This document shows positions 6,298-62,712 of a stretch of 64,000 nt of DNA, one piece after another. How positions within the stretch are numbered: position 1 is the stretch's first letter; each line of letters begins with the position of its first letter. The DNA is from a virus. The translations under genes were made by a program, and so were the position numbers. A model generated the notes under the pieces. It was not told the origin of the DNA. It searched no databases and saw nothing but the letters and a program-made list of their open reading frames with translations. The DNA lies in IMG/VR virus record IMGVR_UViG_3300021597_000002, positions 14,303 to 78,302 of that record; one strand, written 5' to 3'.

Positions 6298-6948
6298 TTA
6301 GGCAGGTAAAACATGGTAATCGGACACGGGACCAGACGGCAATGCCCCCACAACCGGAATACGGCTCAAATGGGTTTTCAATGTCTCCCGTAAGGCATAC
6401 CCCGCCCCCATGGTATTGACGATCACCAAATCATAACCGCCCTGTTCGTACTGATCTTGAATCCGGCATGTGGCATCGAGAACGGTTTCACTGTCTTGTA
6501 TTTCTGCCAGTAACGCCCGTTTAGCACGTAATACCGACGCCATATCACGCACATCAATGGATAAATATTGCTTCTCATTGTTCCCTTTCCGAAATAACAA
6601 AAAGGCTTCACCAGAACGAAGTGGAATATTATTAATGACAGGCTGAGACACAAACCAATAACCGACAATCTTTGAAATGGAATAAAACAACATGAGAAAC
6701 ACTGACAGGCTTGATATTAAGTCATAGCCTAAATCAACACTCCATAATAATTGCTTTAATGGCTCCTTGTCGGGAATGAGAAATAAAGCCAATGCCATGA
6801 CCAGCAAATAAGAAAGACTGAACTCTTTAAACAGCTGGAACGACTTCACTTGTTCTTTGTTGCCAAACAAACCCACACACAAATAGACGCTCAATGTCAT
6901 GAAAAACCATGACATCAGACAGAATGAAATGACCTGAAGTATACTCAT
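6298..6948 (-). CDS. Membrane protein (about 3 TM) with a soluble C-terminal domain
   Basis: Three hydrophobic segments; late-type promoter at 6980-7024; terminator hairpin at 6256-6280. Confidence 0.7.
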   Translation of the reverse strand: MSILQVISFCLMSWFFMTLSVYLCVGLFGNKEQVKSFQLFKEFSLSYLLVMALALFLIPDKEPLKQLLWSVDLGYDLISSLSVFLMLFYSISKIVGYWFVSQPVINNIPLRSGEAFLLFRKGNNEKQYLSIDVRDMASVLRAKRALLAEIQDSETVLDATCRIQDQYEQGGYDLVIVNTMGAGYALRETLKTHLSRIPVVGALPSGPVSDYHVLPA

Positions 6949-7024
6949 CGTGATTCCCTATATTGACGATATCTTAGCCAATATAGGCGGATTGACCGCC
7001 TATCCGTACAACACAACTTTGTTG

Positions 7025-10999: not shown

Positions 11000-11149
11000 G
11001 ATTTTTTCCTTTGGTCGGGGTTACAAATCTAATTGCTATAACGAGAATATAATAAGATTGTGTAAATCAATCAAGGGAAAGATAGGGAAATGTGAGAAAT
11101 GACGGGGGATTTCTTATTGCTAAAACGTGCTTTTAGCAATTAGGAAGCT

Positions 11150-11327
11150 AAAAAAATGCCCCGCATCCTTGCGAGGCTACCCTAATACCCTACTGGCAGT
11201 GCAATCTATACATTGGGATAGCAATGCTCGCTCTTGGCATGAGGTTGGGGGACGACAGCCAGTGTAAACACCACTTACCGAACCCCCGTGTGCAGCTAAG
11301 GGAAGCTACGCCATTGCAAACAATGCC
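11150..11327 (-). ncRNA. Candidate small RNA 2 (~175 nt)
   Basis: CAACA-N6-TGTTG-N24-TAAGAT promoter (11333-11378), no credible ORF, ends in the GCCTCGCA..TGCGGGGC-poly(T) terminator. Confidence 0.45.
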
Positions 11328-11383
11328 CGTTCATCTTAGTGCGGTCACTACGCAGCCAACCACAACAAAAAAATGTTGGATAT

Positions 11384-11446
11384 AAGAAAGCCCACTCACA
11401 AGAGCGGGCTTTGTCTTACACCGAGTTGAAAGAAGGAAGCTTTCAC
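11384..11446 (-). ncRNA. Candidate small RNA 1 (~60 nt) with an anti-Shine-Dalgarno-like seed
   Basis: TAACA-N6-TGTTG-N23-TACTAT promoter (11452-11496), then GCTTCCTTCTTTC, then the AAAGCCCGCTC-TTGT-GAGTGGGCTTTCTT terminator. Confidence 0.55.
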
Positions 11447-11629
11447 AAACGATAGTACGGACGCTTATGCGCTGGTACTACAACATTTTCTTGTTATCCT
11501 CGCCGCCTTACTAAGCCACACAATGGCGCAGCCATTGCCCGTAATTTAAACGATTAGGACCATTGTTCCTGTGTAGTTAGCATGAGTATTTTTTACACAG
11601 GGTTATCCCCTTAATTTGGGGATAACCGC

Positions 11630-13348
11630 TTATGCTCGCTTATAAAACTTGAAGAACTCATCCAATCGCTCGATTTCCATCAAGCCAACTTGAGCGTACT
11701 CCTCCAAGCCGTCCTCTATCCAATCACCACATGCTGACTGTATCGCAGCTCTAACCTCGGGGTAATCTTCAGCAAGACACTCAACCACACCACCGCTTTC
11801 AATTGCAGCCACTGCCTGATCTGCTGGGCTTGATTCTTCCTCTCCCAGCAATGCCATTGCGTTAGCCAGTGCACTATCAGATTGACCGTCGCTTTGCTCG
11901 CCGGCAGGAATGTAATCCACCAACCAGAAGAATGCTGTTGCGTCGAAAATATCAGGAGACTTAATGCCCTCACTACGCAGCTGCTTCTTAGAGAACAGGC
12001 GCCAACGTCCCAACTCATCAAACTCATACGGGATCTTGACGAATTGCTTCTGCAGTTTCTTCTCAAACTGTTTCGTCTCACCTTTATGCAGCTTCAAGCG
12101 ACCAGTATTCAACGCTTCCTTGACCATGACACACGCATAGTCTTTTTCTTTCGGGAATCGCTGTTTCACTGAGTTAGCATGTGGAGGTCTACCCCAGTGG
12201 ATGCGAGTAACATTCACACCAAGCTTTTCACACTCTTGAGCAGTTGTCAGACCGTACCCGTCCGCATCAATACCAACAGTGATATTGGTGTAGCCAGATG
12301 TTTCTTGATGGATAAAGCGAGCAAATTGAACCCCATCCATATCTGCAGGTGCTTCGATAGCCTTAACGACCTCTACCTGTCGCTCACTACCAAAGCCACA
12401 AACCTTACCGATCTTGAGCACTGAGCTATCTCGACCTTCACCGCCTGCAACGTCGGCAACAGCCACCCATCCCCACTCATCAACAAACTCAATAACCGCC
12501 TCAAAGCCTTTATCGACCATGCTACGGGAGATCAGGAAGCCACTTGCATCATCAGGACACACACCAAGAACACGAATGCCATACTCAGGGCTACTCACAC
12601 CCCCGTATTCGATACGTTTTTCTCGGATAAACTTGAGGTTAACAAACGGACTCATTTCACTATTAAGCGTGATAGCCGTGTACAACCCTTGCTCTGCCAA
12701 TTCCATTTGTGAATCAGCAAAGTGACCAGTTGGGCGCGTAAACTGGCTAATGAGTAGCATTTTGTTGTTGTCTTCGGTCAATGCACCACGAAGCACTTCA
12801 AACGCTCGATCGGATACACCAGACGCTTCATCGACCACCACCATGTAATCCCTACGGTGCTGACCGGCTAAGCCTTCCTCATTGCCTTTTGAACATGTTT
12901 TCCCGAAAATTTGCCATACGCCCTTGTAGCCTTTCGCATAGAAAGACTTAGCTGTAATGACGAAGTACTGCTCCAACCACGGCTGACGCTGGCAGATCTT
13001 CACCCAAAGGCGCTTAATGTATGAGAAGACAACGTTAGTTACCTGATCTAAGGAGTTTGCCGTCAACATACACAGAGATTCTGGGTGTGTAATGATGAAA
13101 TGAAGACACAAAGCTGCGGTTAGGTGAGACTTACCCGTACCGTGACCAGAAGCAACAGACACACGCGCCCCGACCGGAGTCAGGGCGTTAATGACTTCAA
13201 TTTGCTGAAACGATGGTTCCATCCCGATAATGTCGTAGATGAAAGCCAACGGTCGACTTCGGTAGCTCGCTGCAAAATCCAGATAACGAGGATCCAGCGT
13301 AATAGCGGCGTGCTTATGCTTTTTGCGGCTTCGGTTTCTAGCTGCCAT
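11630..13348 (-). CDS. pacB: Terminase large subunit (P1 PacB-like)
   Basis: VASGHGTGKS Walker A, VVDEASGV Walker B, ADVAGGEGRD and SPDIFDA nuclease motifs. Confidence 0.95.
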   Translation of the reverse strand: MAARNRSRKKHKHAAITLDPRYLDFAASYRSRPLAFIYDIIGMEPSFQQIEVINALTPVGARVSVASGHGTGKSHLTAALCLHFIITHPESLCMLTANSLDQVTNVVFSYIKRLWVKICQRQPWLEQYFVITAKSFYAKGYKGVWQIFGKTCSKGNEEGLAGQHRRDYMVVVDEASGVSDRAFEVLRGALTEDNNKMLLISQFTRPTGHFADSQMELAEQGLYTAITLNSEMSPFVNLKFIREKRIEYGGVSSPEYGIRVLGVCPDDASGFLISRSMVDKGFEAVIEFVDEWGWVAVADVAGGEGRDSSVLKIGKVCGFGSERQVEVVKAIEAPADMDGVQFARFIHQETSGYTNITVGIDADGYGLTTAQECEKLGVNVTRIHWGRPPHANSVKQRFPKEKDYACVMVKEALNTGRLKLHKGETKQFEKKLQKQFVKIPYEFDELGRWRLFSKKQLRSEGIKSPDIFDATAFFWLVDYIPAGEQSDGQSDSALANAMALLGEEESSPADQAVAAIESGGVVECLAEDYPEVRAAIQSACGDWIEDGLEEYAQVGLMEIERLDEFFKFYKRA

Positions 13349-16273: not shown

Positions 16274-16587
16274 AAGCCCTCCGATTTATTAACAAAAAGA
16301 CAGCGTTAGCTGAGCCTGTAGTTTGTTTCGACGGGGGATTTATCGCATCAACACGTTTTTATTGACCTGCGGCGGACTAGAGCGTGAATCCTCCTACACA
16401 ACAGATTCACTCAGGCTATGCAAAGCCACGCCACGTAAGGGTTTGAGGAAATAAGAAGCAAAACAGAGATTACGCGCCAGTCTCATTTTTTATCTGGCTT
16501 TTCTGGTGAAATTTAGGCATAAAAAAACCAGCTTAATGCTGGCTTGGTGTAATATGCGCTGCGTTTATATAAGACTAGGAGGAACCA

Positions 16588-24996: not shown

Positions 24997-25013
24997 CCTG
25001 TACATTGTACAGG
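24997..25013. promoter_or_regulatory. 17-bp palindrome CCTGTACATTGTACAGG (copy 2) in a divergent promoter region
   Basis: Symmetry extends to AAATCCTGTACATTGTACAGGATTT. Confidence 0.75.
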
Positions 25014-25110
25014 ATTTAGATATATATTGGCGTCGTTAGCACGAAGAGAGCTAACTGTCTCGGTGACGTTAACACCAGATTTTCTAACTATCGACAACAG
25101 GAAAATGTTG

Positions 25111-29388: not shown

Positions 29389-29435
29389 GTATCTAACGGG
29401 TATTAATAGTATACCCGTTAGATATTCATTCGACA

Positions 29436-30916: not shown

Positions 30917-31044
30917 GGTATCTCGACTTATGCTTTGCTAGTATCTCGATTTATGCAAAACGGCATCTCAACTTATGCGTTTGGGTATCTCGATTTATGC
31001 AAAGTGGTATCTCAACTTATGCGTTTGGGTATCTCGATTTATGC
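30917..31044. repeat. Six 17-bp iterons at ~22-bp period (second replication origin)
   Basis: RGYATCTCRAYTTATGC at 30917, 30940, 30962, 30984, 31006, 31028; AT-rich tract with GGTTATAAGATGG repeats to the left, DnaA-box-like TTTTCCACA to the right. Confidence 0.85.
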
Positions 31045-31198
31045 ATTTTTTCACTTCAATTCCACTGTATATACAGCACTTATCCCACTGTATATAAACA
31101 GCTTTTCCACAAATAAAAGCACCACTAAACACCTACCATTTAGGCATAAAAAAACGGCACTCTCTTTCAAGAATGCCGTTTACGGTCGGTAAATTAAA

Positions 31199-31549
31199 TC
31201 AGTAAGAATGTCTGACGATGTGGTTTCTCATTCCGTGGTACATAGCGGTGCTTAGCACTACCATGCACAGCACTAATACCGCCCCCCATACCACCAGCGA
31301 CCAAAGAGTGATAAACGAAACGATGAATACTGTCGCAGGCTTTTTAAGTTGGCGTCGGTGATAGCGTCGTGTTAACTGATCAGCCTTTTGAAATTTGAGG
31401 TACATCTTGGGGACGGTGAACAGCACAAGAGCTGCACGTATGGCTATGAGCGTGATAGCAAAAGTAACCAGTTCAGGCTCGCCGGCTGAAAATCCAAACC
31501 AGCCTAGCAGCAAAGGAATGAGGTTAAAAACAATGAATATCCAATTCAC
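31199..31549 (-). CDS. Small membrane protein
   Basis: Four hydrophobic segments; flanked by terminator hairpins. Confidence 0.65.
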   Translation of the reverse strand: MNWIFIVFNLIPLLLGWFGFSAGEPELVTFAITLIAIRAALVLFTVPKMYLKFQKADQLTRRYHRRQLKKPATVFIVSFITLWSLVVWGAVLVLCMVVLSTAMYHGMRNHIVRHSY

Positions 31550-31613
31550 AATAAGACCTTATCAATAAAAACGCCCCTGAAATACGGGGCGTTGTATCCG
31601 AACAGTATGAGCG

Positions 31614-32402
31614 TTACTTACGCAGAATCCGATCTGACTCTTTATCTATGTAGGCATCAACAATACCAGCTGCTTTGAGCAATTTAAGTGCTGTCTTCAA
31701 CTTTTGACGAAACGTTTTCAAATCGCTCGCCTTAGAACCACAGCTATGCATCACTTTTTCTACTGACACAGCGTACTTGTTGTTCGCTTTATGGCTGGCA
31801 AAATAAAACTGCAACCATTTTGCTATGTTGTTGTTCTTTAGTACCTGACGACGTTTTAGATCGATTCTAGCAAAACCAGAAGAAGTGAAAAATTTCACCA
31901 ACTCTACGGGTAAACGATAATGCCAAAAGCGTGCCATTGCACCATTTACGTCTTTATATTCGAACGAGTCTACCAAATTAAAGTTAAATCGGTGTTGAAT
32001 TAGATCGCCTTCTTCTCTTCGAGTGATAAGACCTTCAATATTTGACTGGCTTAATCGACGCATACATTGCAGTAGTCTTTCATAGTAAAAAGGCGTTCTA
32101 GCCCAGCCTAAAGACTTCATTAACTCTGCTCGTTTGAATTTCAACTTACCTGATAGGTCTGCATTGCGTGCATAGTGAAGAAGTTCCAGATACACATCTA
32201 GATCATCTTGCCTTAGCTCTGGTCCTACGAACTGCAGTTCCATCGGCGTATGACTACCATCAAGCAATCCCAGTAAAATTGGCTTTGTGTAGTATCGACG
32301 CTCTTGTGAAGTGCCAACGGTGAATAGCGCATATCGCGCTAATTCATTAGGTAGGCAGCGAACGGCTTTCGCCCATGGTTTTTCAATTAGCTTTACTGAC
32401 AT
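31614..32402 (-). CDS. TrfA-family replication initiator
   Basis: [32 protein letters not shown]...YERL...[22 protein letters not shown]; iteron array nearby. Confidence 0.8.
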
Positions 32403-33304
32403 GTCGCTACCCCACCCAAAGCATCAAACAACTGAGGCAGGAAGGCATCAAACTCACCAGCAAACAGAACCATATCAGCATCAAATCGCTGAGCGACATC
32501 TTCTCTCGCAATATCGTCATTTTGGTCGGTCAGTTCGTCAGAAAACTTTAATCGCTTTAAGCTGCCATCATCCGACAAGATGAAGTCAACACGATCTTGC
32601 CAGTTGACTGCCAGCTTCGTTACTACTTTGTCAGCTTCAATGTGTGACTGAATTTCTTCAGAAGTCAGCTCTTGTTGTTTACAACGGATTTGACCGCCAT
32701 CTTCTAATACTGATTTTAGCTCTGCTTCCTCAAGCAATGAAAAACCGCTAGGAACTTCACCAGTCTTTAACCAATCAGTCAGAGTTACCTCAATCGCAGA
32801 CGCAAACGTAACAGGAACCACCGGCAAAGAGCCGATTGTTTTTCTTAGCAGGGCTAAAACGTCTTCCGCTTTCTTAAAGCTGCTGGCATCAACAAAAAGC
32901 AATTCTTTTTTAGGGCAAATCCAAACATAAGTGGTATTGGTTCGTTTAAATGCTCGTGGTAGCAAATCAATGACGACATCATCCTTAATGTTGTCTTTCT
33001 CTTTTTTCTTGAGAGGTCGACCTTCCGCAGCTTCAAGAGCATCTATGCGCTCATTTACTTCCTCTTTGATTACCGATGCTGGCAACATTTTCTCTTGAAG
33101 ACGAGCAGCAAGCAAAATCCAATCAGCACCGACATGCAATAGCTGATCGCTATGTTTACCCATTACTGGCGCCCACCCAAACTTCCGTTTGTCTTGCTCA
33201 CCGCATGGAACGAACGCAAATTCAGACAGTTGCTCACTTAGTTGGTCGGGAGTGAGTTGAACTGTCCGAGAAAAGCGATAAGCCATGATATTTTTAGGCT
33301 TCAT
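32393..33304 (-). CDS. rdgC: Recombination-associated protein RdgC
   Basis: [35 protein letters not shown]. Confidence 0.95.
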
Positions 33305-33331: not shown

Positions 33332-33748
33332 TTACTTTTTTTGAGTTGCAGCTGCAAGCTCTGCTTCCAACTGGCTTAGAATGGTGCGTTCTGAGCGCAG
33401 CGTTATTTGAGCACTGGTTAGGCGCTCACTTTGCTGTTCGATTTCGCGGCGAAGTTGTTCAGGATCACGAGGCGCAGTTTGGGAAATAAACTGATGCTTG
33501 TTTTCTCGAAGCTGTTCAAGGAATGGGCTATGACAGTCTTTATTGGCAGCATCAATATTAATCGACTCATAAGCTTGAGGATTAACACGACGGCAATACT
33601 TGTGAAGGATTTCGCGGCAAGCGGCATACTTCATACCGTTTACTGCCGCGACATCTGAGGTTTTAGCGCCCTTTAGAATGGCGCACGCAATTTGTTCTTC
33701 TTTTCTGAGTGAGATTTCACGCTCTTGATTTGTCTCGGTCTTGTCCAT
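33332..33748 (-). CDS. HTH protein with a C-terminal coiled coil; paralog of 50794-51351
   Basis: AILKGAKTSDVAAVNGMKYAACREILHKYCRRVNP aligns with SIFLGARIHDAAVMISVADRTMRDRFLTYCKHANP. Confidence 0.7.
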   Translation of the reverse strand: MDKTETNQEREISLRKEEQIACAILKGAKTSDVAAVNGMKYAACREILHKYCRRVNPQAYESINIDAANKDCHSPFLEQLRENKHQFISQTAPRDPEQLRREIEQQSERLTSAQITLRSERTILSQLEAELAAATQKK

Positions 33749-33936
33749 TTCGATTTCAGCCTTCCAACGTCACCGCTAAGCCGTGGTACCGCGCTCTACT
33801 TCAAAAGCGCTTTTGGTTGCCACAACAAACTTTTATCTTTTTGTTGTGCACTGTTTACCGTTTTTAGCGATGGCGAGAAACAACAAAAAAATGTTGTTTA
33901 ATCTTTTCTCGACTGGATCAAAACTTCGCAGATCAA

Positions 33937-34233
33937 TCAGGTTTCAAACTCGATATCTCCAGACTCAACACCTTTAAGCACTTGCTTACCTTTTTCGGTG
34001 AGAGTGATCAAAGTTGGAGTACGGCGCATGGCTGGTATCTGCTTTCTTTCAACAGCGACCAAGCCTTGCTCTTTTAGCGACTCAAGTATCTGGTTTTTCT
34101 CTGCGGCTTTGATACCAGCATTGACATTAAGGCGTCGAGTGAGGTCGGTCATGGCAATGGTGTTCTTTTTCTCTTTCTTGAGAATAACAAGAACACGTAC
34201 CTCAGCGTTTTTTAGCATGTTGATATCCATCAA
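33937..34233 (-). CDS. Winged-helix (MarR-like) DNA-binding protein
   Basis: MTDLTRRL...LESLKEQGLV...RRTPTLITLTEKG. Confidence 0.75.
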   Translation of the reverse strand: MMDINMLKNAEVRVLVILKKEKKNTIAMTDLTRRLNVNAGIKAAEKNQILESLKEQGLVAVERKQIPAMRRTPTLITLTEKGKQVLKGVESGDIEFET

Positions 34234-34381
34234 ATTTGTTATCTAGTTGACGATTATCGCCATGCTACATGAAGGATGCACACTTACCAATCACCAACTT
34301 ACTCTTCACCGTTAGTTAGAACGCATTAAATTACGTCAATAATTACGTTTTTAATTACGCTATTGATTAACATACATCAAA

Positions 34382-34789
34382 GTGTTAATTTCTGTCCACC
34401 ACTTTGTTTTAAAGGGAAATTGGATGTCACCGGAAATGGCTCACGTTACGTGTCGTGCTGAATTGACTTTAGAAAGTTTGAAGCAATTAAGAAAAGATGC
34501 AGGAAAGCTCACAATTTATATCAGCGGACCAATGACAGGGCACCGCCATTTCAATCATCCAGAATTCTTCCGTATCGAAGAAATGATACAGGATGCCGGA
34601 CACATCCCACTGAACCCAGCAAGAAACCCCAAAGGGTTAACTTACGACCAGTACATGAAGCTGAGCTTCTCAGATCTTTTTGTCTCGAATGCTGTTGTTC
34701 GCCTTAAAGGTTGGATGGAGTCAAAAGGCGCACTGGCGGAAGTGTTTGCTGCTCATTCCCTTGGATTAATGCTCATTGATGAAGAGTAA
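34382..34789 (+). CDS. DUF4406-family protein
   Basis: IYISGPMTG, FNHPEF, LNPA, LKGWMESKGALAE. Confidence 0.85.
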   Translation: MLISVHHFVLKGNWMSPEMAHVTCRAELTLESLKQLRKDAGKLTIYISGPMTGHRHFNHPEFFRIEEMIQDAGHIPLNPARNPKGLTYDQYMKLSFSDLFVSNAVVRLKGWMESKGALAEVFAAHSLGLMLIDEE

Positions 34790-35141
34790 ACGTTCTTTAG
34801 TCGATGCAGCCATAGAGCTTGCAAACAACCAAGTAGAGCACACCCCAGAAGTGTGCTCTCACTGCAGCGGGAAAGGTGAAACCAAAGGGTTATTCTCTGC
34901 TAAATGGGAATGCCTTCATTGTGATGGGCTTGGTTATACCGGCGATCCAGTAGCAATAGCTAAATGGTTTAAAAGTGCGCTAATTCAACGAACCGAAAAG
35001 ATACAACAGCTTGGTTCACACTGCGGCAGATTGAACGATGAAAATGATGTGCTCAAAGTTATCTATCCCGATTGGGAGCAAAAACTAAAAGAGCACTATG
35101 AACAAGAAACCCACGATAAGTGCAGATCACGGTTTGACTGA
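34776..35141 (+). CDS. DnaJ-type Zn-finger protein
   Basis: CSHCSGKG...CLHCDGLG. Confidence 0.7.
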   Translation: MMKSKRSLVDAAIELANNQVEHTPEVCSHCSGKGETKGLFSAKWECLHCDGLGYTGDPVAIAKWFKSALIQRTEKIQQLGSHCGRLNDENDVLKVIYPDWEQKLKEHYEQETHDKCRSRFD

Positions 35142-36458: not shown

Positions 36459-37505
36459 TCACGCTTTTTCTTCAATCTCTTGAGCAGCTTCTTCAGATTC
36501 TCTCAGTTTTGAAAAGAACCCACTGCCAAAATCGTGCCCTTCAGTACCAATCCTCACCAAATGTTCTTTTAGATTATTAATTTCCTCAATGGACGGAATG
36601 CATCGCTTATCAACAACGTCGGCAAATGTCTTTAATGCATCCTCGTAGGTCAGATTTTTCTCAACCTTAACGCCGACCTCTTTTTCCGGCAATTGCCACT
36701 TAAAAAGAAACTTAATCCCGACTACTTTTCTACCTTCTTTGATGTAAGAGAATCCGTAGTTCCCTGTTTTGTCATCGATCAGGAATCTAATATGGGACTC
36801 TTTCTCATCAATTTCTTGAATCGCTGGTTTAATGATCCGCTTGATAAAGTTAGCGTTTACAGCATAAGTCTTTTTCAATAGCGTCCCTTGCCTATCTAAC
36901 AAACCAAAGAAACCATGGAGGTCTTCAATCGTTTGTGGGTGCAGCTCAGTGTTAGGGGATTTGAACCGGCAAAGCATGGTATACAATCTTTTGCCATGCT
37001 CCGTTTTTATTTGTCGGAATGATTTATGTGGAATTTGAGCGTGACCTTGGGATATCCCTAAATACTCTGTGATCAGCTCATCATTAGGTTTGATGGTTAG
37101 CGTGCCATGTTTGTACTTAACTCGCTTAAACAAAGGGATAAAGTCGAAAGAATCACCTTCCTGTATCACACCTATTTTCTTACCTGCCAATCGTTCTGAC
37201 GGCTTATAGAGGATGTTATAAAGGTCTTCCTTTTCCACGCAAAACCAGTCGCAAAGCACTTTGCTTTTAAACTCATAGCTAGGTGATATCGGTGTTTTCC
37301 CTGCCATAAAGTCTTCCCACTGGTCTTTATGCAACCGTGACAGTAATAGAGCAAAAATATCGTGCTCCACTGGTGATAACGACAGTCGGGAAAAGACAAG
37401 CGCATGAGATTTTTTGAAAAAGTCGCTATGGATATCGGCAGACACTGCACTTGTGATTGTTCGTTCTTTTGGCAACTTTTGCTCAGGGGCGTCATTGTCA
37501 TTCAT
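36459..37505 (-). CDS. repA: Rep_3-family plasmid replication initiator
   Basis: FKKSHALV..LSPVEHDIF, KRLYTML, IIKPAIQEI, KEGRKVVGIKF; iterons upstream. Confidence 0.88.
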   Translation of the reverse strand: MNDNDAPEQKLPKERTITSAVSADIHSDFFKKSHALVFSRLSLSPVEHDIFALLLSRLHKDQWEDFMAGKTPISPSYEFKSKVLCDWFCVEKEDLYNILYKPSERLAGKKIGVIQEGDSFDFIPLFKRVKYKHGTLTIKPNDELITEYLGISQGHAQIPHKSFRQIKTEHGKRLYTMLCRFKSPNTELHPQTIEDLHGFFGLLDRQGTLLKKTYAVNANFIKRIIKPAIQEIDEKESHIRFLIDDKTGNYGFSYIKEGRKVVGIKFLFKWQLPEKEVGVKVEKNLTYEDALKTFADVVDKRCIPSIEEINNLKEHLVRIGTEGHDFGSGFFSKLRESEEAAQEIEEKA

Positions 37506-38016
37506 AACTATTACCTTTTACTCCGGTGCTTCTTGCTAACTATGACTCTTTGTTGCTAAGGGGCTTTTAATTATTACCCTTTACTCCGGAAAAGCCGGAG
37601 TAAGAAGTCATTTATTGTGATTTATTGCCTTTAATACCGGAGTAAGAAGTAATAGTAAAGGTTTTATAGAGAGTTTTGAGCGCCAAAGCGGAGTAAAAGG
37701 TAATAGTTATAGAAAAAATCAACGAATCAAGGACATAAATAGCCATTTATCAACAAACTTACACCTCAAGCCGGAGTAAAAGGTAATAGTTACCGGAGTA
37801 AAACGATCTATCTAGCGGAGTAAAAGGTAATAGTTACCGGAGTAAAGTGATCTAGTTACCGGAGTAGAACGATCTAGTTACCGGAGTAAAAGGTAATAGT
37901 TTGTTCTGTAAGCTATTGACCCTAAAGGTTTTTTAGCGCCCTATATATCTTTATAGATCTTTATAGATCTTCATAAATAAAATATAACTATTATATAAGT
38001 GTGGATTTGTGGATAA
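37505..38016. repeat. Plasmid origin: six tandem 22-bp iterons (37771-37902), five dispersed or inverted copies, AT-rich AGATCT repeats and a DnaA box
   Basis: CCGGAGTAAAAGGTAATAGTTA consensus; TGTGGATAA at 38008-38016. Confidence 0.92.
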
Positions 38017-38091
38017 CTAATTTAGTCACCTCCTTAGCCTAACATGTCAAACGCCCCTAACTAGATGGCAACTTCCAAGTGATAACAAATA

Positions 38092-38141
38092 AGTATCTAC
38101 CTGATACCTGTTAAGTGTCGTTGTGGTGTTTTATGGGTATC
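38092..38141. promoter_or_regulatory. Hexamer array (5 units, 11-bp period) upstream of parA; putative parS/operator
   Basis: AGTATC, GATACC, AGTGTC, GGTGTT, GGTATC at 38092, 38103, 38114, 38125, 38136. Confidence 0.7.
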
Positions 38142-38192
38142 AATTAAGCTTTTATGTGCTATGATAAGCCCACACAAAAGAAGGAGATGCTC

Positions 38193-38852
38193 ATGATTAT
38201 CTTAGTTTTTGGGCAAAGAGGGGGAGCAATGAAGTCTATTTGTTCCCAAAACTTAGCCGTAGAACTTGCACACCGCCAACATTCAGTTTGTCTGGTTGAT
38301 GCAGACCCGGGTGGCACCACTACAAACTTTGGCGCCTACCGTGAAGAAGAAGGTGTTGAACCTGAAATCTTCTGTGTCCAGAAGAAAGGGAAGATCACTA
38401 AAACCCTGCAGGAGCTGGATACAAAATACGATTATGTGATTGTTGATGTACAGGGAAACATCGAGCCTACACGCACACAAGAAATGCGTAGTGGTTTGTT
38501 AGCAGCTCATATTGCACTTGCTCCTTTCAAACCCACTCAGGACCACAGGGATAGCATTCTAGATGTACAGGATCTGATTGATTCTGCCAAAGATTTCAAT
38601 TCCAAATTAAAAACGTTTTGCATGGTCTCGATTGCCTCGACCCATATTGCGAGAAAGCAAGACATTATTTTCACCAAAGACACTCTGAAAAAGTTCAGCA
38701 CCATGGAAGTTCTCGATACTGTGACATACAACCGAGTGGTGTACAGCGATGCCTACGCTGTTGGTCGAGGCGTAAGAGAAATGAACGATACAAAAGCAAA
38801 GGAAGAAATGAACGCCTTAGTTGAAGAATTACTGGAGAAAGCAAATGGCTGA
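38193..38852 (+). CDS. parA: ParA-family ATPase (short, type Ib)
   Basis: GQRGGAMKS deviant Walker A, LVDADP, YDYVIVD, GRGVRE. Confidence 0.88.
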   Translation: MIILVFGQRGGAMKSICSQNLAVELAHRQHSVCLVDADPGGTTTNFGAYREEEGVEPEIFCVQKKGKITKTLQELDTKYDYVIVDVQGNIEPTRTQEMRSGLLAAHIALAPFKPTQDHRDSILDVQDLIDSAKDFNSKLKTFCMVSIASTHIARKQDIIFTKDTLKKFSTMEVLDTVTYNRVVYSDAYAVGRGVREMNDTKAKEEMNALVEELLEKANG

Positions 38853-41991: not shown

Positions 41992-42136
41992 GATTCTCTC
42001 GCCTGTTAATTAACATCGAGAGAGTAACGAGCAGTGGTTAGAGGTGCATCAACACAGATTTGTTTGAGTGGGACTTGGCGGGTATCTTGTAAGTATTTAA
42101 AGGGTATCGTATTGATACCCTTTATTTCATTGCGCT

Positions 42137-42553: not shown

Positions 42554-42640
42554 GGTCGTAATTCCTTGCCATAGGGTACCTACAATATAGCAGATACCCT
42601 ACAAGTGTTAAATAAGTATTTATCTGATACCTGTTAGGTG

Positions 42641-49882: not shown

Positions 49883-50635
49883 ATGACCGCAAATAAGTAT
49901 AAAGACTGCTTAAAGAAGAATAAGCATCTATGCCAACGGTGTTACCCACGAAAGGACACGTCCATTCATTATGGGATTCATGCGGGACAGTTCGTGCTGT
50001 GTGATTGTCTGATTGCTGAATTGATGCGATATCCTGGTCCTGCCGGCATTAAAGGGCTTAATTCAGAATTTCTCATAATGAACTGCCATTATAGGGAGTT
50101 GGTGGATTTACCTTGTGGGTATAGCTTTTACGGTAAGCGACTTGAAGAAATGCCATCCTGCGTTCGTCATGAGACTGCCAAGAGCTACGACATGCAAGAT
50201 CGCCTCATTATGGAAGAGCGTCAGGCGATGATTTTTGCAGATTGCGACTACTTTTTCGGAGACAGTATCAAATTGCATACTGTTGAAACTCAGAAATACC
50301 CCCTAATTGACCTAAGCGGAAATTTGATCGGGATCGCTTTTTTGATAAATGATTTTTTCCGTCCTATGGATTCTAGACATGTAAAGCTGCCTGACTTTGC
50401 TGACCTTTCCACTCCTCTTAGCATGGCGGAATCTCGTCTCGTATTTTGTAAAAAAATGGGATTGTCTGACAAAGAATCCGCAGAAAGACTAGGGATTACG
50501 CCATCTACCGTGCGATCTCTCAAAGCTCGTATCCGTGATAAGACTGGTTACAGCGTGTCAGAACTTCGTACTTTATTATCCAGCCACTCATCATTTCGAC
50601 TTATCACCAAGAGCGATTCATTCAGGATACGCTAG
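49883..50635 (+). CDS. PAS + LuxR-HTH regulator, VqmA-like
   Basis: PGPAGIKGLNSEF..NCHYRELV..EMPS..SYDMQDRLI..QKYPLIDLSGNLIG (PAS) and LSMAESRLVF..GLSDKESAERLGITPSTV..RIRDK (LuxR HTH). Confidence 0.85.
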   Translation: MTANKYKDCLKKNKHLCQRCYPRKDTSIHYGIHAGQFVLCDCLIAELMRYPGPAGIKGLNSEFLIMNCHYRELVDLPCGYSFYGKRLEEMPSCVRHETAKSYDMQDRLIMEERQAMIFADCDYFFGDSIKLHTVETQKYPLIDLSGNLIGIAFLINDFFRPMDSRHVKLPDFADLSTPLSMAESRLVFCKKMGLSDKESAERLGITPSTVRSLKARIRDKTGYSVSELRTLLSSHSSFRLITKSDSFRIR

Positions 50636-50638
50636 ATT

Positions 50639-50658
50639 TGTGGACACTTTTGTCTACA
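50639..50658. promoter_or_regulatory. 20-bp palindrome, candidate class II activator site
   Basis: TGTGGACA-CTTT-TGTCTACA, centred at -43.5 relative to a CATACT -10 at 50680-50685. Confidence 0.55.
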
Positions 50659-50727
50659 TACACCATAAGTATGTTTATGCATACTCGCCCTTACTGAGTC
50701 TTTGAATTATATAAAAAAGATTAAAAA

Positions 50728-50747
50728 TACTGTATAAATAAACAGTA
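50728..50747. promoter_or_regulatory. LexA (SOS) box
   Basis: TACTGTATAAATAAACAGTA = CTG-N10-CAG consensus. Confidence 0.9.
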
Positions 50748-50793: not shown

Positions 50794-51351
50794 GTGCTAG
50801 GTGATTACATCCATACAGTTTTAGCCCACATTGAAAATACGGATTTTGGGACAGGATATCTGGAATCAGAAGGACGCAAGAGCGAAGCAAATGCCACCAG
50901 CCACCAGCAAAAAGGAGGCAAGCAAGAATTTATTCCGTGTGGGGATAAGGCTAACTTCCCATACAACGAAGAAACACGAAAGGCGGTCCTGTCAATCTTT
51001 CTCGGGGCGCGTATTCATGATGCTGCTGTCATGATTAGTGTTGCAGACCGAACGATGCGTGATCGCTTCCTGACTTACTGTAAGCACGCAAATCCAGATC
51101 AGTTTGAGCGGATTTATGAGCGAGCAGTCCATCAAGGATATTCAACGCCACCAGTCGAGCTATTTCAGCCTTACGTGTTGGATTTCTTTACACAAGCGGA
51201 TCTGCCTGTATTGCACAGTGAGGCTAAGGTTTTACCGACAGCCAAAGAGCTGGCTGAAGAAAGCCTAGAGAAAGCGAAGCTGGAACTCTCCCTAGCTCGC
51301 ATTCGATTGAGTGTGGTAGAAGGTATGACAAGAATTTTAGGGTGCGAATAA
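50794..51351 (+). CDS. SOS-regulated HTH protein; paralog of 33332-33748
   Basis: LexA box and AAGGAG RBS upstream; HTH-like GARIHDAAVMISVADRTMRDRF; terminal coiled coil. Confidence 0.72.
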   Translation: MLGDYIHTVLAHIENTDFGTGYLESEGRKSEANATSHQQKGGKQEFIPCGDKANFPYNEETRKAVLSIFLGARIHDAAVMISVADRTMRDRFLTYCKHANPDQFERIYERAVHQGYSTPPVELFQPYVLDFFTQADLPVLHSEAKVLPTAKELAEESLEKAKLELSLARIRLSVVEGMTRILGCE

Positions 51352-53450: not shown

Positions 53451-54974
53451 TTACTCCTGCTTCTCATCAAGCTCTGCGTATTTTTCTACCGCTGAGCCGA
53501 TCAGGGCATCGAATTGATCCACCAGCCCCAGTTTTTCTAACTCTTCGCTGGCTTCTTCTATCATTTCAAGCACATCATCTGCAGCAACATCATCATGTAC
53601 ACCATTAATGATATCTTCTAATGTTAGTACTGCTTGAGGCTTATCACCTATAGATTGATCTTTCATTTCATCACTTTCCCCTTCTTGGGACTCTTCCGGT
53701 GTGTTTGTTGCCTCCGGTGACGGCGTATCTGCAGACGTTGATGATGCTTCTGGCGAATCCGGCGTAGCTTGTTCATCCTTATCTTCCTTGCTGCCAGCGG
53801 CATTACTATGCAAAGACCAAACACTATTTCGAGCTGAAATGATCGGCTTATCGAGGACTTTCTGTGCTTCAGAGATAAAATCTAGTGCAGCATCAACGAC
53901 TTCAGAGTGCCCATTGTTATGTCGAGTCTTTAGCTTGTTAACAATGGAATTGACAAAGAGTGAGCGAGTTAACCCTTTCTCTTCACCACGGTCAATAGCA
54001 GCGATCGTGCTCATCGACGAAACCACATCATTGAATAGCCCAGAATCAACCAGCTTAAACCGTTCTAATGTCGCATTTTCTTCGGGAGCAGGTTCGCCTT
54101 CACCTTGCGCTGGGGTTTGCTCTGGCTTTGGCTTTGGCTTTGGCTCAGGCTGAGCTGCTTTTAGCGCGGCAATCTTCTCCCGCAGGCTATCGTTATACGC
54201 TTGACGGCTGGCGAGTTCTTCAGATTTCACCGTAACCATGTGTTCAAGCTCTTGATCGCGGGTTTCTAACTGTGAAACTTCAGTTGTCAGTTGATTGAGT
54301 TCATCAAGCAGTGCATTAGAGGACTCTTGAAGGCTGGCTAATTGATTTCGAGCATCATTGACTTCTTTTTGCTTCGCTTGGAACGCTTCTGAGTTAGCGC
54401 CGGCAAGATTACCAATGCGCTTTCCAATCGTTGAGAGCGATACTTCACGCATTTTCCCTTGATTCATTTCAGGGGCGACAACCTGAGTAATATCTCGCTT
54501 GTTTAGTAGCCAACGAAAGGCAATGACCACATCATCAGGCTTAAATACCTTTGGATCTTCGTCAGGTGCATGGAAAACTACGCTCACTGCCTGCCCGTCA
54601 CTTAACGAAAATTGTGCCGCAACGGTAGCGAAGAGGTTGTTTTTCTTTGGCTCACCGACTTCATGATCTGTCACAGTAATATTGCTGCTTGATAAGGCTC
54701 GGTTTAGTGCTCTAGCCAACGCTTTCATTGTGCGAGGGAATGAGGCATAACTGGTTGTCACCGCATCCAGAATAAAACCATCATGCTTGCCAACGAGTTC
54801 CCCCTCAACATACGCAGCATCCATGACTGACAAAGGCTCAACCTCAAACATTAACGCTTCTTGTTCTGGATCTGCGGTTAGCTGATACATTGCTTCTTTG
54901 ATTTGAGAGCGAGTAAAGCCTTTTGCCAGTGGGTCCGGCATGGCAAAAACTTTTAATCCTTTCACTGGGTTCAT
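53451..54974 (-). CDS. darA: DarA antirestriction/head protein
   Basis: LSDGQAVSVVFHAP, AFRWLLNKRDITQVVAP. Confidence 0.88.
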   Translation of the reverse strand: MNPVKGLKVFAMPDPLAKGFTRSQIKEAMYQLTADPEQEALMFEVEPLSVMDAAYVEGELVGKHDGFILDAVTTSYASFPRTMKALARALNRALSSSNITVTDHEVGEPKKNNLFATVAAQFSLSDGQAVSVVFHAPDEDPKVFKPDDVVIAFRWLLNKRDITQVVAPEMNQGKMREVSLSTIGKRIGNLAGANSEAFQAKQKEVNDARNQLASLQESSNALLDELNQLTTEVSQLETRDQELEHMVTVKSEELASRQAYNDSLREKIAALKAAQPEPKPKPKPEQTPAQGEGEPAPEENATLERFKLVDSGLFNDVVSSMSTIAAIDRGEEKGLTRSLFVNSIVNKLKTRHNNGHSEVVDAALDFISEAQKVLDKPIISARNSVWSLHSNAAGSKEDKDEQATPDSPEASSTSADTPSPEATNTPEESQEGESDEMKDQSIGDKPQAVLTLEDIINGVHDDVAADDVLEMIEEASEELEKLGLVDQFDALIGSAVEKYAELDEKQE

Positions 54975-55588
54975 GCTGCGGACTCCTCTAGCTGTTTTAG
55001 CTCCGCTTCTAGTTGCTCTGAAACAGAATATTCTTGGTTAATGTGGGTGCTGATATCTGACTTTCTTTGCTCTTTAGCTGGCAAACCGTCTTCTAATGCC
55101 TGCTTTTGCTTTCGTTTCTCAGCAACAGAAGCTTCCAAATCTTGCTTATCAGCGTTTGCCAGTGCTATCTGAGCTTTAAGTGATGTTTTAGCTCGGCTTG
55201 ATGAGTCTTTACTCGTACTGCTGGCTCTGGCTGCTCGTTTTTTTAATGTCTGTTGAAACTGCTTGCTGTTTGCACTGACCTTGCCGGCAATTTCTGCAAC
55301 GGCTTTTTTTAGATCGTCAACATGCTTGATTGGGATCACTCTTGTATTGAGGCGTACTTGGAAAATAGCCCCTTGCGCGGTTGCCTGAAGCATGAGCTTC
55401 TGACCATCGGCAAAATGAAGAGTGGCTTTTTTAGTCTGCACTCCAGACTGTCGTTTGGCTTTGTTGTCCGCTTCAACGCTTGTGACTTGGAGATCTTGAC
55501 GTTTAAATTCATCAATGACCTTCTTTAGTCCCTTTTCATTGAATTGGGCATAATCGAAAGATAAGTAACTCACGGGAACGCTCCACAC
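54971..55588 (-). CDS. hdf: Hdf (homolog of DarA fragment)
   Basis: NEKGLKKVI, KRQSGVQTK, DGQKL, GAIFQVRLN. Confidence 0.8.
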   Translation of the reverse strand: MWSVPVSYLSFDYAQFNEKGLKKVIDEFKRQDLQVTSVEADNKAKRQSGVQTKKATLHFADGQKLMLQATAQGAIFQVRLNTRVIPIKHVDDLKKAVAEIAGKVSANSKQFQQTLKKRAARASSTSKDSSSRAKTSLKAQIALANADKQDLEASVAEKRKQKQALEDGLPAKEQRKSDISTHINQEYSVSEQLEAELKQLEESAA

Positions 55589-55686
55589 TGTGATTGTGTT
55601 GTTAACAGTTCGATGGTAGAGCGCAGGGGGTAGGATCGCATCAACAGGAAAATTTACTCCCTCGTGTGAGAGAGTAAATAGGAGGA

Positions 55687-59991: not shown

Positions 59992-62712
59992 TTAGATCCT
60001 GTCATGTGCCATCAACACGAGAGTTTTATCTTCAAACTCGGTTTTAATCGGGGCTGGCACCGAAGCTGATTTTGATTGAGAGGCAGCATAACGAGGACCT
60101 GAAGAGCCTGCACTAACACCGCTTTGTTGCTGTGATTTGTTCATGGCATCAACGATAGCTTTACCTAGTTTTTTCTCATCAATTTTAGCGACAGTCTCAG
60201 TCTTTTCCGTTCGAGTCTCTTTCGTTGTCGCTTGATGAAGCGCTGCTTTTGACGGACTTATCTCTGGCAATGTTGCTTTCAGCTGCTCTGGCATTACTGT
60301 GGTTTCAGACGCCTGTGAGCTGATTGCAGCACTGGCATTCGTACTATGCATCTGATCTTTGCTGTTGGTAGCGAGCGCCTGCGCTGACTCATTGTTGTTT
60401 GTCGTTAATTCAGAGTTATCCGTGTTGTCTGTGTTGGTTGTAGCGCTTTCAGAGGACTTCTCGGCAGACTGCAGCGCTTCCGCTTCACGTTCTGCGCGTG
60501 TTTTACCATCAGTACCTTCCATTCTGTCACTGACTGCTTCGCCAACAACATCACCTCCCTTGCTTCCCAGCCATCCACCAACTGCGGCACCTAATAAACC
60601 ACCGATTAATGTCCCCACTACTGGGACCACGGAACCCATAGCCGCACCCATAGCCGCGCCGGCACTTGCACCTCCTAGCGATCCAGCGGTTGTCGCACCT
60701 ACTTGAACTGCTTTCTGAGAGCCTGTGAGATCTTCTCTATCTTTAACTTCGTTATATTTAAAGTATCCAGTCGCTAATGCTGCGACTGGGGCTGCTGCAC
60801 GGCTGGCAACGGAACCCACGGTTTTGAGTGCGCCACCAGCTGCTTTACCTACCCCTGTATTGGCTAAGCTTCCGGTTGCATTCTTTACGCCTTGTGCAAC
60901 TTTACCAAGACGGCTTGTTGGAGCTGACTTTAGAGCAGAAGCATTTGTGGCTGAAGCTGATTTAGTTCCCTTTAAGCGGTCAAACAGCGAGCCTAGTCGA
61001 CCTTTTCTACCTTTGCCTCTTCCTCGCTTGCTGCCGCCTTTCTCTTTGCCATCACCACCACCAAACATATCTGTTAGATCGCTAACGCTATCCATTAGAG
61101 AGCCGCCAGATTCGCCGCCGAACTCTTTCTTTTCGATGGTCTTAATCAGTTCCTTATGTTGGTCTTGAGAAAGCTCTACCTGCTCATCAAGACGATCCGC
61201 AATAGCTTCATTGCTGCGGACTTGCTCTCTTTCCTTTACGACATTGGCAGACGTCACACTAGCTTGCTTATGTGAGTTAACCTCACGGTGAGTTTGTTCT
61301 GAACGTTCAGGAATGTGCGAGGTGTTCGTTTTCTTTTCGGTAGTTCTATCTCTCTCATTGTGTGTATTAGTTTGGTATCTATCTAATACTACATGAGTGT
61401 TTTTACTCGCCGTTGGAACCTTGCTATTGCTATGACCATCAATATTTTGTGCGCTTGCAGTTGCATGTGTCTCTCTGTCTTTTTGAGATAGAGTGTTTTC
61501 TGAACCTTCACTTTGCTTGCTAGTATTTGATTGATACTGATTTAGTGTTTTATGGGTATCTTCTTTTCGCTGGTTTACAACAGAAGTCGCCTCTGATTGC
61601 TTAATAAAACGCCCACGCTCATCCCTGACTGGTCCTTTCTTGTTCTCTTTGGCAACCGCTTCTTTCGGTGTCGAGGTATCACTTTCTTCGTCTTCGTCTG
61701 ATTTCTTTCCGGTGACTTTCTCAATGATTTTTTGACCAAGAGAACTGTTTTTTACATCATCAGTGGCTTCTTTGACTTCTTTTGCTGCCTCCCAGAGAGA
61801 GCCACCCATAGCAGAGCCTGCAGCGTCAGTCGCTGTATCACCAGCTTCAAGCTCTTCTCTTTCCTCTGCTGCTTTTTTAAAGACATCACCAACGGTTTTT
61901 AATAGACCAGATCGCTCCCGCTTTTCCTTTTGTTCTTCTTGTGCCTGTTGGCTTGCTGTAGCACTGGGCGCTTCACCCTGAGAAGCGGTTTCATTGTTTG
62001 AGATTGGTACGGCTTGCTTAACCGGTGTCGGTTCTTGTTTGGTACGAGCATCAGGTTTACGCTTATTTTGACCAGTTGGGGCTACATCCACACTAGACTG
62101 GGGCGATTGCTTGTCATGGCTTAGTGTTTGATGGTCTGCCTGATCTTTCTGGGAAACCTTATCTGTTGAGCTTGCCGACGTCACATCCGCAATTTGGTTG
62201 GACTGTTCGCTCTTTTGGTATTGCTGCTCTATGACGCTTGCATTGCTACGCTGCTTGCTTATAGCGTTTCTCTGCTCATGAGTAAGCTCTTTATGGCTTT
62301 GTTCATGTTTCGATTGCTGAATCGACGTATCCGGCGTTTTGTTTTCACCTGCGAGCGCATGAGCTTGTGTTTTATTGGCAGAACGAGGGGCGACATTACC
62401 TTGAGACAATGTGGTGTCAGTGGATGTTACCACCTGACTAATAAGTGCTTTATTGGTGCTTGATTGGTATCTATCTAATACTGTATTGGTAGCAGTTTTC
62501 GAGCTTGAAGCCGCTTGTACACTGGTTTTGCCACCAGCAATAGACTCACGGCGAAGTAAAGCAGACGTATTGGACTCAATCTTATCAAGAATGGCTATGA
62601 TCTTCGGTTGGAAGTCTTCTGCCTGCTGTGCTTTGTCTGTCACCTGATCGACAGGTGACAGTTGAGTTGGGTCTACGACAATTTCGGTCTGTTGAGTGTC
62701 TTTGGTGGTCAC
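59992..62712 (-). CDS. sit: Tape-measure-like protein (Sit position)
   Basis: DAAGSAMGGSLWEAAKE, RDERGRF, Gly/Ala-rich TM-like region; between pmgB and pmgA. Confidence 0.7.
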   Translation of the reverse strand: MTTKDTQQTEIVVDPTQLSPVDQVTDKAQQAEDFQPKIIAILDKIESNTSALLRRESIAGGKTSVQAASSSKTATNTVLDRYQSSTNKALISQVVTSTDTTLSQGNVAPRSANKTQAHALAGENKTPDTSIQQSKHEQSHKELTHEQRNAISKQRSNASVIEQQYQKSEQSNQIADVTSASSTDKVSQKDQADHQTLSHDKQSPQSSVDVAPTGQNKRKPDARTKQEPTPVKQAVPISNNETASQGEAPSATASQQAQEEQKEKRERSGLLKTVGDVFKKAAEEREELEAGDTATDAAGSAMGGSLWEAAKEVKEATDDVKNSSLGQKIIEKVTGKKSDEDEESDTSTPKEAVAKENKKGPVRDERGRFIKQSEATSVVNQRKEDTHKTLNQYQSNTSKQSEGSENTLSQKDRETHATASAQNIDGHSNSKVPTASKNTHVVLDRYQTNTHNERDRTTEKKTNTSHIPERSEQTHREVNSHKQASVTSANVVKEREQVRSNEAIADRLDEQVELSQDQHKELIKTIEKKEFGGESGGSLMDSVSDLTDMFGGGDGKEKGGSKRGRGKGRKGRLGSLFDRLKGTKSASATNASALKSAPTSRLGKVAQGVKNATGSLANTGVGKAAGGALKTVGSVASRAAAPVAALATGYFKYNEVKDREDLTGSQKAVQVGATTAGSLGGASAGAAMGAAMGSVVPVVGTLIGGLLGAAVGGWLGSKGGDVVGEAVSDRMEGTDGKTRAEREAEALQSAEKSSESATTNTDNTDNSELTTNNNESAQALATNSKDQMHSTNASAAISSQASETTVMPEQLKATLPEISPSKAALHQATTKETRTEKTETVAKIDEKKLGKAIVDAMNKSQQQSGVSAGSSGPRYAASQSKSASVPAPIKTEFEDKTLVLMAHDRI

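Follow-up and report, generated by a model that had tools for sequence, protein, structure and literature searches.

The question raised by this locus is how a plasmid prophage might pass from DNA damage to lytic growth by way of two small, related regulators. The DNA analyzed here, referred to as the window, is a stretch of 64,000 nucleotides (positions 14,303 to 78,302 of IMG/VR virus record IMGVR_UViG_3300021597_000002), and it comes from a P1-like Vibrio phage-plasmid. The analysis concerns two genes and their helix-turn-helix (HTH) protein products, A (33332-33748) and B (50794-51351), as well as the inverted repeat CAACA-N6-TGTTG (hereafter the box) and an upstream regulator gene, wHTH98 (33937-34233). 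An initial annotation had proposed that B is a trigger, responsive to SOS and quorum-sensing signals, which turns on A together with lytic replication, and that A then sustains itself; as an alternative, it had one copy poison the other through heterodimers. What we define here is a family of small HTH regulators present in two copies, a late-promoter box regulon, and a single entry gene with SOS and quorum-sensing wiring. The reading of a trigger followed by a self-sustaining activator is plausible in light of a paralogous HTH pair in which B is the sole SOS-boxed gene and stands beside a VqmA-like gene, and in which A lies behind a shared box at activator spacing.

A and B are true distant paralogs. 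Pairwise alignment by BLASTP joined them over 68 amino acids (E = 2e-6, 25% identity), which are exactly the core quoted in the initial annotation, and profile-profile comparison with hhalign, using alignments of close relatives of each protein, gave 93.7% probability (E = 1.8e-7, 75 columns). The joint alignment runs end to end, from about residue 19 of A through the C-terminus, and leaves L117, R121, and L124 of the terminal helix invariant; A also matches the PHROG family of B weakly (E = 1e-3). When the window was searched by hmmsearch with a family profile, exactly two members were found, A (E = 2.6e-45) and B (E = 3.1e-36), and a profile search of 1.84 billion representative sequences identified 51 member clusters (50% identity) at E <= 1e-3, mostly of 125-150 amino acids and divided into an A-like and a B-like branch. 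Both proteins match the family motif, ILxGAxxxDVA...R..LH..C...N...YE...P...LR.....F followed by a long C-terminal helix, in a total length of about 135 amino acids.

With regard to existing classifications, the family corresponds to PHROG 26082 and 25672, and Pfam holds no family for either A or B; a few of 46 family members gave weak Pfam matches to HTH_23, HTH_28, Sigma70_r4_2, and KORA, and the nearest protein-atlas cluster is a viral HTH_28/HTH_23 group (score 0.89). Comparison of the family profile with PDB sequences returned coiled-coil noise only. Among divergent members, P0022, P0026, P0036, and P0030 led to no related loci in viral or genome collections, tblastn of P0022 and P0036 against plasmids recovered only already known elements, and the homolog of A on Spartinivicinus pA (31% identity) has no box upstream. 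LexA-regulated Lxr of P1 (190 amino acids) was considered as a homolog of B and rejected (hhalign probability 1.3%). A and B are best described as members of an uncharacterised family with an N-terminal HTH domain and a C-terminal coiled-coil-like helix. While the phage type, late-activator cascades, and LexA-gated induction genes are of already known kinds, no description of this protein family, of the box, or of their wiring was found in the searchable literature, nor was a description of the regulatory circuit of P1-like marine phage-plasmids such as p0908 and pVv01.

The predicted structures of the two proteins are in keeping with this description. A, encoded on the minus strand as the first gene of an A-rdgC-trfA block, is a 138-amino acid protein (pLDDT, the predicted local distance difference test, 84.5 in the AlphaFold2 model), in which the HTH is placed N-terminally at residues 28-55. 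B, encoded on the plus strand, comprises 185 amino acids with a conserved N-terminal extension of about 30 amino acids, a disordered linker, and an HTH core at about residues 57-132 (core pLDDT >90); its start codon is a GTG preceded by the Shine-Dalgarno sequence AAGGAG, an arrangement kept in relatives. The terminal coiled coil named in the initial annotation finds a counterpart in the long C-terminal helix modelled in both proteins (residues 96-137 of A, with pLDDT >90, and 148-183 of B). In both, the HTH sequence pattern has the classic spacing of a small residue, a glycine/serine turn, and a hydrophobic residue. The best structural matches of the N-terminal domain of A include the DeoR/SorC DNA-binding domain (Z 7.9), Mor of phage Mu (Z 7.2), Mu C in a transcription initiation complex with RNA polymerase (Z 6.6; root-mean-square deviation [rmsd] 1.8 A over 49 residues), and sigma region 4, and the core of B matches NarL in complex with DNA (Z 5.8, rmsd 3.2 A, 64 residues), with many LuxR-type structures next. 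Foldseek placed VqmA, VpsT, and ComA at the top for A, all weakly (E > 0.4), and neither A nor B matches Pfam GerE. Since the Z values are middling, the models support assignment to a small HTH domain and no narrower class. Prediction of a complex between A and residues 56-185 of B scored 0.03, which gives no verdict either way.

The perfect box behind A is present at 33881-33896, as initially annotated; it is, however, not a private operator of A, as approximately 10-12 leftward lytic promoters share it when one mismatch is permitted. The window contains four perfect copies (at 7009, 11363, 25095, and 33881) where 0.12 are expected, a number reached in 0 of 100 shuffles, and 13 sites with no more than one mismatch against 2.2 expected. 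Nearly all minus-strand boxes are followed, exactly 23 nt on (once 24 nt), by a hexamer that fits NANNNT (A second, T sixth), including TATATT, TACTAT, TACTCT, TAACGT, TATGCT, CAAACT, CATCAT, and TAAGAT. The arrangement box-N23-NANNNT was found at 10 leftward versus 3 rightward sites (2.25 in shuffles), and the half-box version, TGTTG-N23-NANNNT, at 21 leftward versus 7 rightward sites. These leftward promoters stand before the portal gene, the lysis cluster, several structural operons, an integrase/PadR block, A, and two stretches free of open reading frames (ORFs) after pacB. The best-kept part of the box is the promoter-proximal TGTTG, often with ATGC after it; in the Photobacterium toruni element, the promoters of the portal and lysis genes keep TGTTG(A/C)TGC, the spacing, and the hexamer while the distal half drifts. 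No -35 hexamer is present at a workable distance in the box promoters, and with the hexamer placed at -12 to -7 the center of the 16-bp dyad falls at about -43.5. This geometry is that of class II activators, among them Mu Mor/C and proteins of the LuxR type, and not that of a repressor operator.

At the A promoter itself, the distal box (CAACAAAAAAATGTTG, 33881-33896) is kept in p0908, p48/10, and P. toruni despite diverged flanks, and the -10-like hexamer TAAACA (33852-33857, minus strand), which follows the box after 23 nt in the orientation of the gene, is kept in Xenorhabdus; the box at this promoter is conserved across three genera. The second half-site of the initial annotation, GCCACAACA (gene strand TGTTGTGGC) at 33819-33827, is also present and turned out to belong to a second inverted repeat, CACAACAAA-N10-TTTGTTGTG (33821-33848), in which box half-sites stand at N14 core spacing and which covers about +1 to +25 of the inferred start. 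In P. toruni the place of this proximal repeat is taken by a perfect N6 box, TGCAACAACA-N6-TGTTGTTGCA, so that two boxes are present there, and the Xenorhabdus A promoter retains only the proximal halves of both repeats. A sigma-54 promoter reading of the TGGCAAC sequence near A was rejected, as the GG-to-GC spacing is 9 instead of 10 and the motif is lost in P. toruni.

The description of A as heading an rdgC-trfA operon holds insofar as A is the first gene of that block and needs amending insofar as wHTH98 lies 188 bp upstream on the same strand. The interval from wHTH98 to A shows no detectable terminator, which means that the prophage may already produce A and that read-through from wHTH98 could provide a basal level of it. 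These features bear on a reading in which A, in the prophage, represses or occludes the boxes as well as its own operon and B is an SOS-induced antagonist that acts through mixed dimers or site competition. Such a reading draws on the possible supply of A by read-through in a lysogen, on the resemblance of the second repeat over the start to a repressor site, and on the homologous C-terminal helices with L117, R121, and L124 in common; LexA-controlled antirepressors, including Tum of phage 186 and AntC of N15, are moreover a known induction route. The box, however, is found upstream of promoters that have no -35, and a repressor alone would leave their firing unexplained, just as elements without B would still require a route of induction. 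We consider this reading quite improbable.

Downstream of A, on the same minus strand, are rdgC (32393-33304; Pfam RdgC, E = 2.7e-114) and a trfA-type replication initiator gene (31614-32402; Pfam TrfA, E = 6.6e-19), followed by six 22-bp iterons that form a putative TrfA origin (30917-31048). The gene order wHTH98-A-(rdgC)-trfA is shared by the Vibrio, Photobacterium, and Xenorhabdus elements, the last of these being without rdgC. The window carries two replicons, one with Rep_3, iterons, and parA (six 22-bp iterons beside parA, 36459-38852) and one with TrfA and iterons (30917-32402). Because the TrfA operon has a lytic-type box promoter, the layout suggests that TrfA replaces RepL of P1 as the lytic replicon.

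Upstream of A, wHTH98 (minus strand) encodes a 98-amino acid winged-helix (MarR/PadR-like) regulator with weak Pfam and PHROG regulator matches. The promoter region between it and a divergent DUF4406 operon contains three AATTACGY repeats with a 12-bp period (34329-34360), identical words are also present in the Xenorhabdus and P. toruni regions, and the repeats are probably the operator of wHTH98 or of a prophage repressor. Since its promoter region has this different repeat motif of its own, wHTH98 is less likely to be the box binder. This is relevant to the possibility that neither paralog binds the box, with the late activator being wHTH98, the PadR-like protein, another phage protein, or a host factor, and with A and B serving, for example, as initiator accessories or in copy-number control. 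That family members adjoin replication initiator genes in three phage-plasmid genera and in the small plasmid pE7G2 agrees with such roles, and participation of other factors is normal, Lpa of P1 requiring the host factor SspA. On the other side, wHTH98 has its different local repeat motif, box-like promoters occur in minimal replicons that have a family member and lack wHTH98, and no other conserved HTH candidate was seen in a fitting place, which leaves this possibility, in our view, an unlikely one.

B, by contrast to A, is an accessory input module. The statement that one copy is LexA-boxed was confirmed for B, for which a near-consensus CTGT-N8-ACAG box (TACTGTATAAATAAACAGTA, 50728-50747; 18 of 20 consensus positions) was found in promoter/leader position, 47 nt before the start codon. 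It is the only good intergenic site of this kind in the window and is kept in three elements, including p0908 and V. cholerae pSA7G2, so that, judged by its sequence, B would be a member of the SOS regulon. B adjoins a plus-strand gene (49883-50635; Pfam PAS_4/HTH) for a putative VqmA-type receptor with a PAS domain and a C-terminal HTH; phmmer matched the protein over its full length to phage VqmA (7dwm, E = 6.7e-7) and to V. cholerae VqmA (E = 1.4e-6). Between the two genes, a palindrome (TGTGGACA-N4-TGTCTACA, 50639-50658), kept in three elements and upstream of a conserved CATACT hexamer (50680-50685), is a candidate site for the VqmA-like protein. The darB-like gene and its following neighbor flank the B cassette, which is encoded on the strand opposite to them; P. 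toruni lacks the cassette, and 10 bp separate the two flanking genes there. By hmmsearch, the complete P. toruni element has A only, as does the Xenorhabdus phage-plasmid. The absence of B from both elements marks it as accessory, with A as the core, and means that B is no obligatory partner of A.

B-like genes were also found outside the phage-plasmids, as proteins of about 137 amino acids are encoded by V. cholerae plasmids pE7G2 (2,466 bp) and pSA7G3, by pVpR13_19Kb, and by a small Xenorhabdus contig. On pE7G2 a box promoter (561-605; AAACAAAAAAGTGTTGATGC, 23 nt, TAGCGT) is aimed at a ribbon-helix-helix-like gene, and its site shows the extended TGTTGATGC with spacing and hexamer as in the phage-plasmid; pVpR13_19Kb (5335-5385) and the Xenorhabdus contig have one-mismatch boxes upstream of genes. 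The small plasmids co-reside with an 80-kb element in V. cholerae E7G and SA7G and with a 77-kb element in X. bakwenae SF857. They link the A/B family to the box outside the phage, with the plasmid's own protein or that of the helper both fitting as user, and they may be satellites of the phage-plasmid circuit.

The small plasmids also give weight to a reading in which B alone is the late activator, a functional Lpa made upon SOS induction that acts at all boxes including that of A, and in which A would be no activator but an autoregulator of the KorA type, tuning the trfA operon by means of, for example, the start-site repeat. Not only is B the only SOS-controlled gene, but the small plasmids with box promoters encode B-like and not A-like proteins, and the B-like gene of pE7G2 is located immediately 3' of rep. 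A has the architecture of KorA (N-terminal HTH, C-terminal dimerisation helix) and a position before trfA, Foldseek gave a local match between A and KorA (37 residues, 0.8 A), and one family member has a weak Pfam KORA match. The similarity to KorA is, however, below any threshold, and the P. toruni and Xenorhabdus elements retain box-type promoters without having B on the element. We regard B as sole activator as unlikely.

The circuit that we favor instead would have B as its entry point. LexA would keep the B gene off until DNA damage allows B to be made, the adjacent VqmA-like receptor probably also drives the B gene, and B, through binding to the same box or by another route, would set the loop going. 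The box promoters, including that of A, would then fire. As the conserved core regulator at the head of the probably lytic TrfA operon, A most likely binds the box and switches on the late operons as well as its own operon with TrfA replication; given such binding, the arrangement itself implies positive feedback. The level of A is probably capped by the second repeat, which covers the inferred start, and both proteins are likely to act as small dimeric HTH regulators. Because we infer every functional step of this sequence from SOS through B and the box promoters to self-sustaining A and late operons, including which protein binds the box, that the effect is activation and not repression, that B precedes A, that TrfA serves lytic growth, and that the proteins dimerise, we put it forward tentatively, at somewhat less than an even chance.

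A number of observations weigh against this circuit. The Z values of the fold matches (5.8-7.9) are middling, a level often reached by small helical domains. In the recognition helix, A and B are unlike at most positions except for a conserved Arg (R45 of A), so that binding of the same box by both proteins would not be expected a priori. The P. toruni and Xenorhabdus elements, without B, keep A and its boxes; presence of A in the prophage state would fit a repressor or homeostatic role better than that of an activator; the A hexamer TAAACA lacks T at position 6, the sole exception among the box promoters; and the small-plasmid boxes are each weak (P 0.06-0.17 in a lenient shuffle test). What keeps the other readings alive is that the recognition helices are unlike, that two lineages lack B, and that transcription may read through into A.

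If A and/or B do bind the box, they would represent a new late-activator family with a paralog cascade resembling that from Mor to C. The circuit, if true, would also provide a simple model for the merging of DNA damage and quorum signals in the commitment switch of a Vibrio plasmid prophage, as well as a handle on small plasmids with the same box. A joint and more far-reaching reading, in which no dedicated phage repressor exists, LexA and the VqmA-like receptor gate B, B leads to autocatalytic A on the lytic TrfA replicon and thence to about 12 late promoters without -35, and the small plasmids with boxes and a B-like gene are satellites, seems decidedly doubtful as a whole.

The individual box promoters, all on the minus strand, are distributed across the window as follows. 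In addition to the A promoter, perfect boxes are located at 7009-7024 (23 nt before TATATT, upstream of ORF 6298-6948), at 11363-11378 (identical to that of A, 24 nt before TAAGAT, pointing into ORF-free DNA downstream of pacB), and at 25095-25110 (23 nt before TAACGT, with a terminator-like hairpin and the integrase/PadR/YejK block downstream). The remaining sites likewise have a spacing of 23 nt: a TAACA...TGTTG box at 11481-11496 (TACTAT), which also points into ORF-free DNA; the lysis-cluster promoter at 16349-16364 (CAATAAAAACGTGTTG, CAAACT), whose cluster has endolysin and spanin PHROG matches; the portal-operon promoter at 42050-42065 (AAACAAATCTGTGTTG, TACTCT), with proximal half and hexamer kept in P. 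toruni; one-mismatch boxes at 378-393 (CATCAT) and at 60114-60129 (TATGCT), the latter within the 3' end of a 906-amino acid gene and perfect in its P. toruni equivalent; and a half-box, TGTTGATGC, at 55642-55657 (TACCAT), upstream of ORF 54971-55588.

Several further observations were made beside these promoters. Between the 25095 box promoter and the integrase start, a stem-loop (ATCCTGTAC-AAT-GTACAGGAT followed by TTTTTTT on the gene strand, 24998-25014), kept in P. toruni, would be either a leader terminator that needs antitermination or the end of a short RNA. The box promoters at 11363 and 11481 aim into about 600 bp without ORFs after pacB, with terminator-like hairpins next, and this region (11000-11630) is a candidate source of lytic-phase small RNAs; Rfam returned nothing there, nor did an Rfam scan of the window find any family. 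A second dispersed motif consists of GGTATC/GATACC-type words around some promoters (42066-42120, 42554-42640, and 29390-29424), for example upstream of the portal and Ulx-like genes, with a 14-bp perfect inverted repeat at 29390. Finally, ORF 34776-35141, in the operon divergent from wHTH98, encodes 121 amino acids with two DnaJ-type CxxCxGxG zinc-finger motifs; it was considered as a Q-like antiterminator and rejected, as its weak PHROG matches look like DnaJ-type zinc fingers and it is not an obvious DNA binder.

The assignment of the element to the P1-like Vibrio phage-plasmids is based on both identity and gene content. At the DNA level the window matches a 74-kb plasmid of Vibrio campbellii BoB-90 with 99.6% identity and p0908, along with two further Vibrio plasmids, with about 84% identity, and it includes pacB, portal, endolysin and spanin genes, a Ulx-like gene, and a gene for a 2,348-amino acid SNF2/DarB-like protein; a search of a phage collection, from which close records may be missing, gave no match to the window at either the DNA or the protein level. 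Mitomycin C induces a relative, pVv01, which has been described as a P1-like plasmid prophage (PMC4132613).

Comparison with known systems places this locus among several familiar designs. In phage 186 (tum), N15 (antC), and VP882 (VqmA-Qtip), one small gene under a LexA box or phage VqmA launches lysis, and B appears to have both inputs nearby. Those gene products, however, are antirepressors, and their phages have no HTH paralog of them at another locus, whereas B belongs to an HTH pair whose other member is encoded at the replication operon, and no cI-type repressor was identified in the window. KorA (TrfB) of RK2/RP4, the global trfA repressor, resembles A in being small, with an N-terminal HTH and a C-terminal dimerisation part, on a TrfA replicon with several palindromic operators, and faint resemblances are seen in local structure and in Pfam, where one of 46 family members matches KORA (PF16509) weakly (E = 0.0066) and A and B themselves give no match. 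KorA operators overlap the -10 and repress; by contrast, the box lies upstream of the -10 at activator distance, and A and B have no significant sequence match to KorA.

The likeness to P1 begins with the phage type, that is, a plasmid prophage with pacB, darB, portal, and Ulx-like genes (PMC4132613), and extends to the late promoters. P1 has 11 Lpa late promoters consisting of an inverted repeat and a -10 without a -35 (PMC10695390), and about 12 dispersed late promoters of the same composition are predicted here. The P1 repeat, however, is annotated as 9 bp at -22, compared with a 16-bp dyad near -43.5 in the window, and P1 lpa is repressed by C1, a protein that, like Coi, gave no homolog in the window. 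By tblastn against the window, P1 pacB and pmgT were matched and Lpa, C1, Coi, and Lxr were not; for Lpa (gp10), hhalign also gave a probability of just 0.2-0.3%. The lack of matches to these four proteins indicates that the control circuit differs from that of P1. P1 has a perfect CAACA-N6-TGTTG at 87067-87082, inside lxr and close to the promoter predicted for humD. The 10.8 kb examined would be expected to hold about 0.01 such sites; as P1 has no A/B homolog, the site may be there by chance.

With regard to geometry and the use of paralogs, the closest resemblance is to Mor and C of phage Mu, which are paralogous activators of middle and late transcription. In both cases there are two small paralogous HTH proteins in what may be a cascade, and the HTH of A, as modelled, superposes on Mor (Z 7.2) and on C (Z 6.6). 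The sites of Mor and C lie near -43.5 at promoters without a -35, a position that the box would share, here on the basis of its geometry. Pfam Mor (PF08765) was matched neither by A or B at E <= 0.1 nor among 46 family members at E <= 0.01; Mor and C have an N-terminal dimerisation domain and a C-terminal HTH, whereas the order is predicted to be reversed in A and B; and the first copy here appears to be controlled by LexA and not expressed from an early transcript. Taken by analogy, the system would fit that of an analogue of P1 Lpa in role and of Mu Mor/C in geometry and paralog use.

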